A stretch of 64,000 bases of DNA from an uncultured Verrucomicrobiae bacterium. GTDB lineage: Bacteria > Verrucomicrobiota > Verrucomicrobiia > Chthoniobacterales > UBA10450. Below are positions 59,330 through 64,000 of this stretch, one piece after another (position 1 is the first letter of the stretch; each line of letters begins with the position of its first letter). The notes under the pieces are model-generated. The model saw only the letters and a list, made by a program, of their open reading frames with translations, did no database searches and had not been told where the DNA came from. The position numbers were made by a program, and so were the translations under genes. The DNA is taken from contig CAVWPA010000003.1 of NCBI GenBank assembly GCA_963756875.1, positions 1,472,001-1,536,000 of the forward strand. The letters run 5' to 3'.

Positions 59330-59654
59330 GCCTAACGAGACACAAGATCAGCCGCCGCTAGCGTTGAACAACATTACGGCGGGAGTGCGTGAGCGCAGCG
59401 AATGGAGCTGCGGGTCAAGCGACATGGAAGGTAAAACGACGAGGGTAGGAGCGAGTGAGTGTGGGCAACGAACGAGTTTCAATCGCACCAGGGAAGCCGG
59501 GCACCTGGAGATATTCCAGGCGGGAGCGCGCGTCGCTCGTGGTCTGTGGTCAGTAGTCATGTTGTCCTGTATTTATACACCGGCCAGCGTGCCTGCTTGC
59601 CTGCCGCCGTGGCGGGCGAAAGCTTTCGGAGTTGGCTGGAGCGATTGGTTAGGC
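59330..59654 (-). other. attC 9 (325 bp; 121 bp after removing two inserts)
   Basis: GCCTAAC...GTTAGGC with inserts at 59364-59522 and 59586-59630. Confidence 0.85.
59364..59520. mobile_element. 157-bp non-coding element inserted in attC 9, flanked by CG
   Basis: Near-identical to 61347-61504, at the same position relative to the L' box. Confidence 0.75.
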
Positions 59655-59696
59655 CGAGGCCCACAGCTCCACGTCGCCAATTGACGGCAAGATCCT

Positions 59697-60185
59697 CTAG
59701 GGCCCCTTTACGTCCACATTGTGGTAGGCTGCTATGTTCCATTCACCTTTGTTGTTTACGAACACCTCCTGCAAGCGCGTGCGCATTTTACCATCGCCCC
59801 TGCTCGTCACGCCAGGCGGCACACCGTGAAGCTCGCTCAATTCCGTCGAGATATCGACGATTGCTACATCGGGCCGGAGGAAATGAATCTTGTCTACCGA
59901 CATAGTGAGCCTGCTGCCCTTGAAAAACGTCCTGAAAATTTCCGCGTGCCGATCTTCGAAGGCTCGATGGCCGTAAAATACAGTTCCACGGATGTTCGTG
60001 AAACTCCCGTCTTCGGCGAATCTTCGCGAAAAAGCCTTGGCGTCGCCGACATTCCACGCCGCAACTTGGTCGGCGACGATCTGACGAATTCGCGATTCGT
60101 CGCCGTGTGATTGTGCGGCGAGAGGTAACGAGGTGACGAGGAGGAAAAGGTAAGCTGAGACGATTGTAATTGCTTTTGTTTTCAT
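59697..60185 (-). CDS. Cassette gene: secreted NTF2/SnoaL-like (SgcJ/EcaC, DUF4440) protein
   Basis: AAWNVGDAKAF, FAEDGSFTN, FLRPDVAIVD and WNIAAYHN motifs. Confidence 0.85.
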   Translation of the reverse strand: MKTKAITIVSAYLFLLVTSLPLAAQSHGDESRIRQIVADQVAAWNVGDAKAFSRRFAEDGSFTNIRGTVFYGHRAFEDRHAEIFRTFFKGSRLTMSVDKIHFLRPDVAIVDISTELSELHGVPPGVTSRGDGKMRTRLQEVFVNNKGEWNIAAYHNVDVKGP

Positions 60186-60199
60186 GAAAGGAGATTGAG

Positions 60200-60346
60200 G
60201 TCTAACGAGAACAAGCTGAGTTACGGCTACCGGAGGCGGGCGTCAAATGCGATCTGAATGTTTTAGTCATCGAAAATGTAAATGCACAACGGGTAGCCAG
60301 CCTGCTCGCGAAAGCCTTCGGAGTTAGCCCGAGCGCCTGGTTAGAC
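60200..60346 (-). other. attC 10 (147 bp; 123 bp without the 24-bp insert)
   Basis: GTCTAAC...GTTAGAC; loop similar to attC 13. Confidence 0.88.
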
Positions 60347-60356
60347 CTCAGCTATA

Positions 60357-60725
60357 TCATTTCCAACGTATAGCTTTGCCTTTTCCCTGAGCTTGGTTGG
60401 AAAGAATTGATCTGCGGTTAAGAATAGAGGCAACCGGCAAAGCGTCTACTATGACGGCCTGCGCCCCGAGCTTAGCCGCCGCTTCACGGAACTTGCGCCT
60501 AACATCTTCGTCAGAAACACCAATCGTCTTATCGACTGAAACAAAGCCGATAACATTGAAGGGACGCTGCGGCGTTTGATACAGGATCTGTACCTTACTG
60601 GGATCGGTCGGATGATACGTGATACCTGGCACAGCGTTTGTGCCAGATGTGGCACAAGCAACAAGGGTAAGCGCGATAACAATCGCGCTAAACGAAGCGA
60701 GGAACGTGCGTTTGATGTTGATCAT
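60357..60725 (-). CDS. Cassette gene: small lipoprotein
   Basis: LVAC lipobox; AAKLGAQAVI motif. Confidence 0.75.
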   Translation of the reverse strand: MINIKRTFLASFSAIVIALTLVACATSGTNAVPGITYHPTDPSKVQILYQTPQRPFNVIGFVSVDKTIGVSDEDVRRKFREAAAKLGAQAVIVDALPVASILNRRSILSNQAQGKGKAIRWK

Positions 60726-60747
60726 GGCGTGTGTGGTGTTGGGTTAG

Positions 60748-60871
60748 GCCTAACTAGACGGAGCTCAGCTGCCGCTGACGAAACCGAGCTTTGATAACAT
60801 TGAGAACTCTCTCATAAAATTCCAGTTTGGTCACGCGACGGTCAGCGATTAGCTGCAGCGATGGGTTAGCC
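60748..60871 (-). other. attC 11 (124 bp)
   Basis: GCCTAAC-N8-GCTCAGCT..CGCTGAC...GTCAGCG..AGCTGCAGC-N5-GTTAGCC. Confidence 0.9.
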
Positions 60872-61267
60872 CTTTGCTCGCACGCGTTCTTTCATGTCGG
60901 TGTACGCAGTATCGATTAGCTTCGTTAGAGCCGTGGCATCGAAGTCACGATCGGGTCGGAGCTTCACGTGACGCATAAACTTGCCTGTGCCTTCCAACAG
61001 ACCCTCCGGATCGGCTATTTCGGCGCCACGAAAGAATCCGACATTCACGTGCGCTTTGAAAACGTTGACGTACCCGAATGCCGCGTCAGCTATACACGCC
61101 GTTGGATGGCCATCATGCAACAGTTCTCGCACATCGTCTCCACACTTACGCATAACCTCAAACCAATGCCGCGCGATTACACCCAATTCCTCTGTATGCG
61201 CTTTCATCCAGGTCTCGATGGTTGGATCACGCTTAACCGAACCGGAGAACCGCAGGAGCTGATTCAT
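60866..61267 (-). CDS. Cassette gene: DUF1801 domain protein
   Basis: HVNVGFFRGA and LLEGTGKFMRHVKL motifs; stop lies in R''. Confidence 0.88.
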   Translation of the reverse strand: MNQLLRFSGSVKRDPTIETWMKAHTEELGVIARHWFEVMRKCGDDVRELLHDGHPTACIADAAFGYVNVFKAHVNVGFFRGAEIADPEGLLEGTGKFMRHVKLRPDRDFDATALTKLIDTAYTDMKERVRAKG

Positions 61268-61346
61268 GACCGTTACACAAGAAACAGAGTGTGGGAGTAA
61301 TTCGGGGTCTTGGGCCTAACGGGAACAAGATGAGCGACGGCTTCCG

Positions 61347-61504
61347 TTGCTACAACAATACGGCGGGAGTGCGCGAGCGCAGCGAATGGAGCTGCGGGTC
61401 AAGCGACATGGAAGGTAAAACGACGAGGGTAGGAGCGAGTGAGTGTGGGCAACGAACGAGTTTCAATCGCACTAGGGAAGCCGGGGTCTTGGATAAAATC
61501 CAAG
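61347..61504. mobile_element. 158-bp non-coding element inserted in attC 12, flanked by CG
   Basis: Second copy of 59364-59520. Confidence 0.75.
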
Positions 61505-61528
61505 CGAGGGCGCCCGTCGCTCGGAGTG

Positions 61529-61598
61529 AATGGAGTGGACTGTCAAGCCACGACATAGACGGGAAGCCCGGAGGGGATGGGAGCAGCGCGACCATATC
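61529..61598. mobile_element. 70-bp insert in the attC 12 loop
   Basis: Its removal restores the CGTC-N22-TCAT spacing seen in attC 9, 10 and 13. Confidence 0.6.
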
Positions 61599-61668
61599 AA
61601 AGTGTGGAAGTCATCTCAAAAAGTGGAGGGTACAACGGTCCGCCGTTCGCTCCATCGCATGGTTAGGC

Positions 61669-62052
61669 CTATTCGAGCGCACTGATCGTGAGATAGTATC
61701 CATCAGGGTCCCTGAGTGAGAATTCCCTTGTTTGAGTGTTCGGGTTCACGTGGGGCTCCTCCTCGAGCCGAGCGACGAGAGCGCGTGCCCTTGGCAGCGC
61801 CATGTCAAAATCATCGACACGGAAAAACAAGAGGAGGCCGTTGCCAGGTGTCGCCCGCTCCGGGCTCATCAACGACGGATGCTCGTGCGTGCCCCATTGG
61901 TGGAGGCAGAGCAGGACAGTTCCATCCGAATCGAGGATCTGACCAAAGTAGGCATGGCCCGGTTGTGTCTCGGGCTGGCCGAAGAGCGACTGGTACCATT
62001 TGAAGCTACTTGGTACATCGCTTACGCCGATGATCGTCCACGTGCGTTTCAT
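61669..62052 (-). CDS. Cassette gene: VOC/glyoxalase family protein
   Basis: GNGLLLFFRVDD and REFSLRDPDGY motifs. Confidence 0.9.
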   Translation of the reverse strand: MKRTWTIIGVSDVPSSFKWYQSLFGQPETQPGHAYFGQILDSDGTVLLCLHQWGTHEHPSLMSPERATPGNGLLLFFRVDDFDMALPRARALVARLEEEPHVNPNTQTREFSLRDPDGYYLTISALE

Positions 62053-62068
62053 AGCATTTACGCTGCTG

Positions 62069-62191
62069 GCCTAACGAGACAAAGCTGAGCTGCGGCTGCC
62101 GGAGCCGAGCGTCAAATGCAGTGTGGAGGTTTTGATCATGGAAAATGGAATTGCACAGCGGGTAGCCGTTCGCTCCAGCGCTTGGTTAGGC
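62069..62191 (-). other. attC 13 (123 bp)
   Basis: GCCTAAC-N8-GCTGAGC...GCTCCAGC-N5-GTTAGGC. Confidence 0.92.
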
Positions 62192-62686
62192 GTTTCGCGT
62201 CTCATTGGCTGAGAAACGTTGCATGGGCACAAAGCGAATACCGTGAACGCACTGCTCTGAACCAGTGACACGAAAACCTAAACGCTCGTAGGCAGAAACG
62301 GCATTCGGTGAAGAGCTGACAGTGAACTCGCAATCCGTATCGCCAGCTAGCGTGCTCGCAGCCGCGAGCAGCCCACGGCCGATGCCGCTGCACTGCCGGG
62401 AAGACTGAACAAAGAGCATGGCGACGTGGCAAGGCTCGCGCAAATGAAGCATGCCGATCAACTTGCCCGAGTGCTCGGCGACTAAGGTGATGTGACCAGA
62501 CTCGTGACGCTGCGAAAGGGCCTCAGCAGAAGCATAGCGGTGAAACTCCGTGACGCCCTCGGTTTGGTAGTGCGGTGCGACAAACTGGTCGAACGCCTCG
62601 CGCGCAAGAGAAGACACGGCTGCGATTTCCGACGGGTGAATCTGGCGATAAATTACCGAACTCACGATGGGCGAAATGGCTTTCAT
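62186..62686 (-). CDS. Cassette gene: GNAT acetyltransferase
   Basis: MLFVQSSRQCSGIGRGL and SSPNAVSAYERLGF motifs; stop lies in R''. Confidence 0.85.
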   Translation of the reverse strand: MKAISPIVSSVIYRQIHPSEIAAVSSLAREAFDQFVAPHYQTEGVTEFHRYASAEALSQRHESGHITLVAEHSGKLIGMLHLREPCHVAMLFVQSSRQCSGIGRGLLAAASTLAGDTDCEFTVSSSPNAVSAYERLGFRVTGSEQCVHGIRFVPMQRFSANETRNA

Positions 62687-62708
62687 TTACACGAGGTGCG
62701 CAGCAAAG

Positions 62709-62801
62709 ACCTAACGACCCAAGCTCAGCGACCCGGCCCGCGGGACGCGTGGATTGCAACCAGAGCGCGATGGCCGGGTTCGCTGTAGCGCATGGTTAGG
62801 C
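62709..62801 (-). other. attC 14 (93 bp, different sequence type)
   Basis: ACCTAAC-N7-GCTCAGCGACCCGGCC...GGCCGGGTTCGCTGTAGC-N5-GTTAGGC. Confidence 0.92.
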
Positions 62802-62814
62802 CTCGTTCCTTGAT

Positions 62815-63252
62815 TCACGGGTGATCTCCGCAATGGTTTTGAACAGTAATTCTTTCTTGATTGGTTTGCTTCAGCTTGCGATTCCGACGAGCGCCGACGA
62901 TGGCACAAGCAACCCCAACAAAGAAGCAGAGGCGAAACAGATTGATGACAAAAAAAGAAACTGAACGGAATGTGCCCGGCGGCATAGACTCCGCCGCCGG
63001 TGCGAGCGGGAGAGGTGCAACGATACCGAGCAGAATCAGGAGAACGCCAAGTGGCACCAGAATGGATTTCTTCGGTGCCGACGATATCCACATCCAAAAA
63101 CCCGAAAGGACTATGAAAGGCAGGGCGACATATCGAACAATGGGCGCGTAATTCGGAAGTTGTTCAAACGGACTGTAAATGTAACCGAGTATCGGAATGC
63201 CGAAAATAATGTGAATCCAGCGAAGGATCGAACGTTTGGTAGCATTACTCAT
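62815..63252 (-). CDS. Cassette gene: hypothetical four-TM membrane protein
   Basis: KRSILRWIH...GYIYSP; fills the inter-attC space. Confidence 0.7.
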   Translation of the reverse strand: MSNATKRSILRWIHIIFGIPILGYIYSPFEQLPNYAPIVRYVALPFIVLSGFWMWISSAPKKSILVPLGVLLILLGIVAPLPLAPAAESMPPGTFRSVSFFVINLFRLCFFVGVACAIVGARRNRKLKQTNQERITVQNHCGDHP

Positions 63253-63300
63253 AATTGGTTGATATATCTATTTATCGGCAAAAGCGCATCAATTACTCTA

Positions 63301-63428
63301 GCCTAACGAGACAAAGATAAGCTACGGCCACCAGCGCTGAGGCCAATCTGTGGAGGAAGTAAGTAAATCATCGAAAAGCATGTCCAAGGCGTACCGCAGT
63401 GGCCGTTAGCTTCATCGTGTGGTTAGAT
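63301..63428 (-). other. attC 15 (128 bp)
   Basis: GCCTAAC-N8-GATAAGCTACGGCCAC...GTGGCCGTTAGCTTCATC-N5-GTTAGAT. Confidence 0.92.
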
Positions 63429-63441
63429 GCGGACGTGAAAA

Positions 63442-63657
63442 TCACAGATCGTTTGGCGTCAGACCTGTTCTCTTCGCAATGCGCGCCAGCATGCGGGGAC
63501 CAATCTCCTCCGAATCGTGAAATGCGAACACGGTGTCCGGCCAGCCCGGCCGTGACAGAATCCGGTGAGAGCCTCCGCTCTCGCGCTTGATGGTCCAGCC
63601 GATCCGCAGCAGCGCGGCCAGAACTCGGCGCGCTTTTGCAGAACCCCATTGGCTCAT
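63442..63657 (-). CDS. hicA: HicA-family toxin
   Basis: LLRIGW, GSH motif and EEIGPRMLARIAK. Confidence 0.9.
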   Translation of the reverse strand: MSQWGSAKARRVLAALLRIGWTIKRESGGSHRILSRPGWPDTVFAFHDSEEIGPRMLARIAKRTGLTPNDL

Positions 63658-63863
63658 GCCGTGGCGACGGAGAAAACTTGGTCAATCTCGGGGGAATTCT
63701 CGCCCTGCTCAATACGCTCGGCTAAAACACGGAGCCCGAGCGCCTGAACCCGCGCAACCGCTTCCTGGCGCGAACTCCCGTACGCCAGTGCGCCGGGAAT
63801 CTGTGGAACCTCGGCGATCCAACGGCCATCTGTCTCTTGCTCGGTCTCGACTGTGAACTTCAC
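63654..63863 (-). CDS. hicB: HicB-family antitoxin (short form)
   Basis: EQETDGRWIAEVPQIPGALAYG; GTG start; ATGA overlap with hicA. Confidence 0.88.
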   Translation of the reverse strand: MKFTVETEQETDGRWIAEVPQIPGALAYGSSRQEAVARVQALGLRVLAERIEQGENSPEIDQVFSVATA

Positions 63864-63869
63864 AATACA

Positions 63870-63898
63870 ATTATGCCGCAAATAGCGAGAGAGCACAA
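63870..63898 (-). promoter_or_regulatory. Putative promoter of the hicBA cassette (leaderless)
   Basis: TTGTGC-N17-CATAAT ends 6 nt before the GTG start; no RBS. Confidence 0.55.
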
Positions 63899-63911
63899 GC
63901 CAGGCCTCACC

Positions 63912-64000
63912 ATCTAACGAGAACAAGATGAGCGACGGCTTCCGTTTGTTACAACAATACGGCGGGAGTGCGTGATAATCGCACTCAGCGGTTCGCAGGC
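63912..64000 (-). other. attC 16 (truncated by the window edge), carrying a variant of the 157-bp element from 63945
   Basis: ATCTAACGAGAACAAGATGAGCGACGGCTTCCG followed by TTTGTTACAACAATACGGCGGGAGTGCG. Confidence 0.85.

Follow-up and report, generated by a model that had tools for sequence, protein, structure and literature searches.

The window analysed here is a 64,000-nucleotide (nt) stretch of the genome of an uncultured Verrucomicrobiae bacterium (C3:1472001-1536000, C3 being contig CAVWPA010000003.1 of a 2.69-Mb, three-contig assembly that is 87.6% complete; genomes, contigs and loci are cited below by G, C and L numbers). Its right end runs into a chromosomal integron, complete with integrase gene and attC array, and several of the attC sites are interrupted by a small structured non-coding element, which is the subject of this study. 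The integrase gene (C3:1548368-1549393, minus strand) scores 330 bits with TIGR02249 (cut-off 265) and shares its strand with the cassettes instead of diverging from them; the array extends from about C3:1529796 to 1547994. Cassette open reading frames (ORFs) lie on the minus strand, and the plus strand of each site reads RYYYAAC ... GTTRRRY and carries the extra unpaired bases in its 3' arm. Because of this arrangement, and following the attC anatomy given in PMC5027507, we assign the plus strand of the window as the recombinogenic bottom strand of the attC sites, which GC skew places on the inferred lagging-strand template. Ordinary sites of the array measure 124-126 nt and the four filled ones 326, 356, 290 and 352 nt; in attC 16 one arm does not match the other. 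When whole attC strands were folded by minimum free energy under DNA parameters, the canonical attC stem failed to appear even in empty sites, and these folds were uninformative.

A sequence-only reading of the window had described the insert as a structured element of 157 or 158 nt, starting at 59364 in its first copy and bracketed by two CG dinucleotides. The figures could be reproduced: within those bounds the two complete copies measure 157 and 158 nt, a CG precedes the copies (59362-63, 61345-46 and 63943-44) and another follows the two complete ones, the cores at 59368-59501 and 61352-61485 are identical at 131 of 134 positions, and a repeat finder run independently returned the same pair of copies (92% over 172 nt). 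The bounds themselves had to be moved. All subtypes open with CG (CGTTGAAC, CGGTTCGC, CGCTGGC) and close at the last base of hairpin P3, so that the first CG forms the first two bases of hairpin P1; the second CG in this genome is explained by the attC itself, which continues with its own CGRGAGCG. GG or GT comes after the element in genomes G008 and G075, and in G008 tandem units abut directly, the last without a following CG. The CG pair is therefore neither a target duplication nor a shared core dinucleotide. Junctions are uncertain by about 2-3 nt through microhomology. No flank duplication was found at the ends of 21 intergenic copies and the attC copies checked, no terminal inverted repeat of the kind that defines MITEs, the miniature transposable elements with inverted repeats, joins the ends of the attC subtype, and the 159-nt element holds no ORF.

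The claim of one fixed attC position proved sound well beyond this array. We collected 39 distinct contexts running from the TAAC of the R' box to the conserved core in many genomes, judged four to be non-attC (L066, L083, L148 and L182) and used the remaining 35. In these the TAAC-to-core distance is 37-42 nt, and exactly 38 nt in 26; the element starts 24-28 nt after the TAAC, beside L', and its position is constant over at least five arm types and several genera. Members of the attC subfamily always lie between the L' arm and the central region, with the folding strand always on the recombinogenic bottom strand and thus antisense to the cassette genes in all 35 contexts. As had been proposed, the element is better conserved than its hosts: between attC 9 and attC 12 it is identical at 148 of 160 positions (92.5%), against 21 of 30 in the left arm and 88 of 170 in the right part (arms 52-70%).

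Table 1. Coordinates of the element copies, their parts and the neighbouring attC features (window positions unless prefixed by C3 or given as a locus).
Feature	Position	Strand	Remark
Element copy 1, P1 to P3	59362..59520	+	159 nt; bounds by comparison with the empty look-alike C3:1544187-1544311
P1 mini-hairpin CGTTGAACAAC, copy 1	59362..59372	+	
5' conserved core ACGGCGGGAG, copy 1	59376..59385	+	CGGC pairs with GCCG of the 3' core; final G opens P2
Helix P2, base GTGCG ... CGCAC, copy 1	59385..59488	+	tip carries the nested module
Nested 83-nt module (GAATGGAGC ... GAGTTTCAA), copy 1	59400..59482	+	separate repeat family
3' conserved core CAGGGAAGCCGG, copy 1	59489..59501	+	
P3 hairpin CCTGGA...TCCAGG, copy 1	59504..59520	+	compensated in copy 2: CTTGGA...TCCAAG
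Element copy 2	61345..61504	+	160 nt; soil contigs join 61341 to 61505 across it
Parts of copy 2	P1 61345-61356; 5' core 61360-61369; module 61384-61466; 3' core 61473-61484; P3 61488-61504		
Element copy 3, nested variant	63943 to about C3:1536109	+	runs past the window end
Element copy 4, full	C3:1539663-1539822		in attC, 3.7 kb beyond the window
attC 9, as bottom strand (CCTAAC ... GGTTAGG)	59331..59653	+	326 nt
attC 12, bottom strand	61315..61667	+	356 nt
attC 16	63913..64000, continuing to C3:1536201	+	holds element copy 3 from 63943
attC without element (example)	60200..60347	+	others about 60748-60872, 62069-62192, 63301-63429
Second insert in attC 12, unrelated, 70 nt	61529..61598	+	soil-metagenome contigs from 3 runs skip exactly this stretch
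GCCTGCTCGCGAAAGCCTTCGGAGTT-like hairpin piece, about 25 nt	about 59585-59635; C3:1532200-1532347; C3:1543663-1543811; L008; L050		

What had been taken for a single 157-mer is two elements, one inside the other. The outer frame is a unit of about 86 nt that comprises P1, a short U-rich linker, ACGGCGGGAG, helix P2, CUAGGGAAGCCGG and P3; the 83-nt module, unrelated to it, sits in the tip of P2, and the putative CGCAGC/GCTGCG hairpin would span the place where tip and module meet. The module occurs alone at four non-attC places of this genome at about 75-82% identity (C3:5971-6054 and 132163-132251, minus strand; 1317102-1317188 and 1363707-1363790, plus strand), one free copy standing between nuoC-like and nuoD-like ORFs on their strand, and its family has 43 distinct matches in the DNA searched. 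Conversely, in G008, which belongs to another genus, the same attC insert exists as 84 nt without the module, as 157 nt with it, or with that hairpin tip occupied by some other insert, and soil-metagenome contigs also hold the short, module-free form. We read the 157-158-nt insert as one repeat nested in another, each from a family of small, structured, interspersed repeats specific to the lineage. Direct repeats of 8-10 nt flank two free module copies, ACACAGATGA at the nuoC-like/nuoD-like site and AAGCTGAA at C3:1363.7k, which suggests that the module, unlike the outer unit, duplicates its target. RNAalifold found no consensus structure for the module; by eye, two of its hairpins switch between Watson-Crick and tandem G.A pairs in the alignment.

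The outer unit, by contrast with what shuffling yields, is strongly structured. RNAalifold applied to 107 copies returned an invariant CGGC/GCCG helix and a five-pair P2, with compensatory changes in 35-63 sequences per pair. When 96 hits, 89 of them distinct, were aligned to the model, 95.6% of cells paired, against 75.7 +/- 1.1% after shuffling, a value that none of 500 shuffles reached; the covariation score was 0.466 against 0.121, and slid controls gave at most 45.8% pairing. This alignment was fitted to the model and so favours the structure; aligning with MAFFT, independently of the model, led to the same result. At four P2 pairs both partners change in 32-39 of the 89 distinct sequences, and the outer helix shows rare compensations at two pairs, such as CGAU/AUCG in G017. 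Two of the helices proposed from the sequence alone held up: the long-range GTGCG/CGCAC pairing is the covariation-backed base of P2, and the terminal hairpin is P3. Among 76 copies, P1, P2 and P3 fold better than their shuffles in 63, 71 and 63 cases, and better on their own strand than on its complement in 51 against 21, 60 against 15 and 55 against 17. Given this asymmetry and the G-U pairs (at one P2 position G-U is the commonest pair), the structure belongs to one strand, the attC bottom strand or window plus strand. P2 also carries a conserved tandem G.A motif, and the junctions are invariant and purine-rich. The fold may be one of RNA or of single-stranded DNA, and the sequence fits either.

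Two 'double' variants of the unit (C3:614560-614700, plus strand, and C3:1308060-1308250, minus strand) have a 5' core split by a P1-like hairpin and about 50 nt; they read ACGGC ... CGGGAG across the split and share pieces with L188.

The idea of an attC-targeting element did not survive the search for further copies. The same frame, with other P1 and P3 sequences, stands at six non-attC places in this genome, and the contexts of the motif across genomes comprise attC sites, intergenic heptamer tracts, a place beside a tRNA gene, the region upstream of nadE and the inside of a DNA-methyltransferase gene. An exact core-pattern scan of one genome per species gave at least 123 stretches with at least 127 matches; among the matches listed, 18 loci from other phyla that carried neither P1 nor P3 were set aside, and at least 107 distinct copies were kept, nearly all from Verrucomicrobiota, Chthoniobacterales or Candidatus Udaeobacter assemblies. 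In relatives, the exact pattern was present in 7 of 41 genomes (6 of 24 of the same family and none of 16 from other families of the order), and a reversed-pattern control gave one match. With a covariance model built from the 107 copies, 30 of the 61 family genomes gave between 1 and 26 hits each, and these genomes represent 22 of 36 genera; the tallies include G007 and G014 (flagged unpublished), both without the motif and both with matches to Y1 transposases, and nothing else reported here draws on those two genomes. Viral contigs gave three pattern matches, two of them seemingly genuine, which are too few to interpret.

Outside attC, the surroundings are mostly heterogeneous. Next to 17 non-attC copies stand genes that have no function in common and vary in orientation, with no mobile-element gene among them. 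One subtype shares the strand of nadE and lies 109-142 nt upstream of that gene, in G000 and at four further loci, with a P2 that covaries among them (NAD synthase identity confirmed; L055 and L180 have like sequences and could come from a single genome). In L163 (G021:C2:540646-543755, about 1480-1610) a copy on the strand of a tRNA gene starts directly beyond that gene's 3' end, with no base between. Decayed copies also occur. The intergenic subtype often lies within GGTCAG tracts, and intergenic regions are rich in tandem heptamers of varied sequence (GGAGGTC, GCCGAAC, GGGCAAG, GTTGRRC, GGAGCTR and others), for example at C3:6160-6200, C3:1334100-1334600, L160, L163, L169 and L171.

Several independent lines of comparison mark the unit as an insert. 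Within this genome, attC 9 has an empty twin at C3:1544187-1544311 that matches both sides of the insert, and attC 12 has one at C3:1540575-1540700. In G075 (locus L165) two sites of one attC type lie about 1.2 kb apart, one filled and the other empty, and soil-metagenome contigs from two runs join 61341 to 61505 with the element skipped. In G008, a single attC type carries one, two or three head-to-tail 84-nt units. attC 16 adds a nested case, in which a complete intergenic-type unit lies inside the 3' core of an attC-type unit. Finally, another subtype, running antisense to a DNA-methyltransferase gene, breaks the 3' part of its frame at two separate points. The broken fragment resembles a class I SAM-dependent DNA methyltransferase (62.7% identity, E 1e-17, by tblastn against annotated plasmids); NCBIfam gave the fragments no name. 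One of the two interruption points is intact in another copy of the gene, and as the sequences read the open frame is plainly the ancestral state.

The tetranucleotide before the insert is biased. Just 5' of the 21 intergenic copies the consensus is TCAG at positions -4 to -1 (T in 13, C in 15, A in 12 and G in 16); it is GTAG, CTAG, CTAT or CTTC before attC copies, TTAG, CGAG or CTGG before copies in the methyltransferase gene, and TCAG before the nested copy. The sense strand falls on the inferred lagging-strand template in 8 of 10 copies, or 5 of 7 independent places, numbers too small to weigh.

Other small pieces occur in the same surroundings. Stretches similar to the 70-nt insert of attC 12 (61529-61598) are found in G020 (L176) and beside methyltransferase fragments in L097. 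The GCCTGCTCGCGAAAGCCTTCGGAGTT-like hairpin piece is another small insert type, which recurs in several attC right arms as well as at other places. Locus L196 (G077:C464:14000-25236) contains five 3'-end fragments of a DNA-methyltransferase gene within about 6.5 kb, several of them interrupted by the motif, downstream of sucA-, sucB- and msrB-like genes, in an array-like layout that shows no clear attC sites.

We searched the genome, at its 87.6% completeness, for an enzyme that could move the unit. It gave no match to the IS110 DEDD domain (PF01548), to reverse transcriptase (PF00078), to the TnpB zinc ribbon or to CsrA, and no longer copies with an ORF between the 5' and 3' cores within 6 kb. 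Y1 (RAYT-like) transposases, with six matches, are the only candidate enzyme class present; they occur in 52 of the 61 family genomes and, being nearly universal in the family, do not discriminate. Reverse transcriptase was found in 5 of the 61 and IS110 genes in 21 (12 of 30 with the motif and 9 of 31 without), some of these IS110-family genes lying inside the integron arrays of relatives; no enzyme of the three follows the distribution of the motif. In L190 (G058:C1:1244800-1247600, 721-2190) a 1470-bp IS110-family element, present in two copies that are 99.6% alike, stands at the R'' end of a motif-bearing attC and shares no end with the motif. Since it lies at R'' and not at the motif position, the two are independent occupants of attC, and the link to IS110/IS1111 elements suggested by the sequence-only reading falls away. 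The G058 element looks like an IS1111-attC-type insertion in a Verrucomicrobial integron. An integrase-made junction was considered and dropped: G|TTGAAC of copy 1 fits GTTRRRY, and other P1 variants do not.

Classical arrays of GTAG-and-hairpin REP doublets accompany RAYT-like genes at C3:11960-12448 (minus strand; several tandem doublets on each side), C2:136825-137307 and C1:672206-672703, and also occur at about 27.8-28.1 kb of C2, in DNA flanking the long frame C2:23183-27811.

Taken together, we favour, with a probability of about 0.5, a non-autonomous, strand-specific insertion element that probably moves as single-stranded DNA, a mechanism that we infer. The unit would enter DNA one way round, bounded by the opening base of P1 and the closing base of P3 and without target duplication, usually landing just 3' of a YYAG-like tetranucleotide. 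Movement would be as single-stranded DNA, in the manner of REP/RAYT or IS200/IS605 systems, with the enzyme supplied in trans. In attC it would fold by itself as a side domain within the variable terminal structure (VTS), and copies there would persist only where place and orientation keep the R and L boxes intact. The single-strand route is favoured because YYAG, a GC-rich terminal hairpin, one active strand and the lack of duplication make up the architecture of HUH systems; the hairpins at both ends, the missing duplication, the tetranucleotide bias, the Y1 genes and the strand indicated by GC skew suggest the same. Of the earlier proposal of a miniature non-autonomous element, the small non-coding insert stands, mobilisation in trans is likewise what we propose, and the restriction to attC does not stand.

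A number of observations weigh against this interpretation. No partner enzyme is linked to the element, and neither circles nor excision junctions nor recent insertions at strain level were seen. Y1 does not track the motif, being below threshold in 3 of the 30 motif-bearing genomes; the flanks of the six Y1_Tnp matches contain no copy of it, and at least four of these six genes have GTAG hairpin repeats of their own, of a different kind, on their flanks. The preference in target sites is weak and may partly reflect the heptamer tracts around intergenic copies. For some attC copies, common descent followed by precise loss is possible, because most share related left arms. Invariant purine-rich junctions, tandem G.A pairs and strong covariation are features met more often in functional RNAs than at the ends of transposons, and the nadE-upstream subtype and the tRNA-abutting copy point to retention for function.

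These last points define the main rival, and it is a real one, although we think it distinctly less probable than the insertion element: the unit would be a functional structured RNA (protein-binding, processing, stability or cis-regulatory) that has been copied round the genome and is tolerated in attC as a domain of antisense or read-through RNA. Besides the junctions, the covariation and the G-U pairs on one strand, it would account for the conserved place, strand and covarying P2 of the nadE subtype, for the copy directly following a tRNA gene on its strand, for the module between the nuoC-like and nuoD-like ORFs on theirs, and for loops and junctions that repeatedly expose GGG(A). Yet the folding strand is antisense in every attC context and in the methyltransferase gene, and only the nadE-linked subtype has the consistent neighbours and orientation expected of a riboswitch or leader, those of the 17 non-attC copies being unrelated and variable. 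No conserved promoter or terminator was seen, no Rfam family matched, the genome, at 87.6% completeness, lacks a CsrA match, and decayed copies exist.

A more speculative and rather unlikely reading would dispense with protein altogether. The units of these soil Verrucomicrobia could be undescribed mobile nucleic-acid modules, strand-specific and self-folding, that home to single-stranded or hairpin DNA, the recombinogenic attC strand included, and nest in one another's hairpin tips. They might move by RNA catalysis or by some other new route in place of a known transposase, and might tune cassette excision through the length and folding of attC.

It is improbable, and already disfavoured, that the filled sites represent an immobile lineage of long attC, whose variable terminal structure grew by local duplication and whose similarity to sequences elsewhere came about by recombination. 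Long, branched variable structures are known from attC sites of chromosomal integrons (PMC5027507); every G008 copy sits in one attC sequence type, and attC 12 and the copy at C3:1539632 are alike in both arms as well as in the element. Against such a lineage stand the empty twins and the five or more distinct arm types, the much better conservation of element than of arms between attC 9 and attC 12, the copies in coding sequence, beside a tRNA gene and in intergenic tracts, and the copy nested in another. The sequence-only reading had named copies confined to one attC type, with no empty sites, as the pattern that would speak for a long attC lineage; filled and empty sites are found in the same genome, in another genome and in soil contigs.

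About as improbable is a small self-cleaving or otherwise catalytic RNA, with head-to-tail 84-nt arrays processed to monomers. Size, a three-helix layout with conserved junctions, multi-copy spread and tandem arrays resemble what is generally known of small-ribozyme distribution, but no Rfam ribozyme matched even at E values up to 1, and tandem arrays were found only in one attC type of one genome.

Least likely is an attC-targeting miniature derivative of an IS1111-attC/IS110 element, mobilised by a DEDD enzyme in trans with CG as shared core dinucleotide: the bottom-strand orientation is that of IS1111-attC elements and group IIC-attC introns (PMC3001079) and IS110 genes do occur in the family, some within integron arrays, but there is no DEDD match here or in G072, which has 22 motif copies, co-occurrence with the motif is weak, the G058 element shares neither end nor place with it, the last tandem unit has no CG after it, and most members of the family lie outside attC.

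Searches for a described counterpart returned little. Rfam 15 gave no match over the window at the gathering score, and at E values up to 1 four loci (attC-type, intergenic-type and module) gave two chance-level matches only, to a plant miRNA and an archaeal snoRNA. Among the open-access papers listed for Udaeobacter and Chthoniobacterales repeats and for attC, VTS and Verrucomicrobia, no description of such an element appeared, and core strings searched in open-access full texts found only unrelated papers among the matches listed. In Rfam 15 and open-access text we thus found nothing that combines three helices and an invariant junction with nested modules and a subfamily resident in attC, and the unit is apparently undescribed.

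To our knowledge, only two kinds of element colonise attC sites, IS1111-attC elements and group IIC-attC introns, both kilobase-sized and enzyme-encoding. According to PMC3001079 and PMC11187229, the former (ISPa21, ISPst6, ISKpn4) occupy a fixed attC position on the strand antisense to the cassettes, and our element resembles them in both respects. It differs in that they are kilobase-sized, carry a DEDD transposase and a seekRNA and lie near the other attC end, whereas the element has no ORF and lies beside L'; nor does it show the core dinucleotide found at both IS1111-attC junctions. Group IIC-attC introns insert in the attC bottom strand, opposite to cassette transcription (PMC3001079), and the element is likewise structured with its sense strand on that bottom strand; unlike these introns, which have a reverse transcriptase and group II ribozyme domains, it comes from a genome with no reverse transcriptase match and gave no Rfam group II match. 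With the VTS as described in PMC5027507 it shares a location where variation in attC length is tolerated and a purine-rich bottom strand, and in several copies from related genomes P3 is capped by a GAA loop, a feature described there for attC loops. Unlike a VTS it is a discrete unit with a family outside integrons, and its sites reach 290-356 nt against the 57-141 bp range given in that source. A small non-coding occupant at a third fixed attC position would be new for integron biology, and filled sites of up to 356 nt would provide a natural test of how much structured cargo an attC variable loop can carry.

Among repeats outside integrons, REPs and REPINs with RAYT, and PATEs, the protein-less relatives of IS200/IS605, are short strand-specific hairpin repeats that produce no target duplication and have a conserved tetranucleotide immediately 5' of a GC-rich hairpin. 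The element shares the terminal hairpins, the strand specificity and the absence of target duplication with REP/RAYT and IS200/IS605 systems, and Y1 HUH genes are present in its genome; unlike REPs, it is a three-helix unit with an invariant purine-rich junction and has no link to a Y1 gene. Correia elements, Rickettsia palindromic elements, BOX, ERIC and MITEs are likewise structured, multi-copy repeats of about 100-150 nt, sometimes modular and sometimes located in genes; we know of none that occupies attC. MITEs have terminal inverted repeats and target duplications, and the three-hairpin unit shows neither. The unit is well supported by covariation and strand asymmetry, absent from Rfam, and present in 30 of 61 genomes of a dominant, little-studied soil lineage. 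Functionally it comes closest to REP/RAYT-type and other small interspersed repeats. We place it with small, structured, non-autonomous repeats, a known kind of element, and its mechanism could possibly be new.

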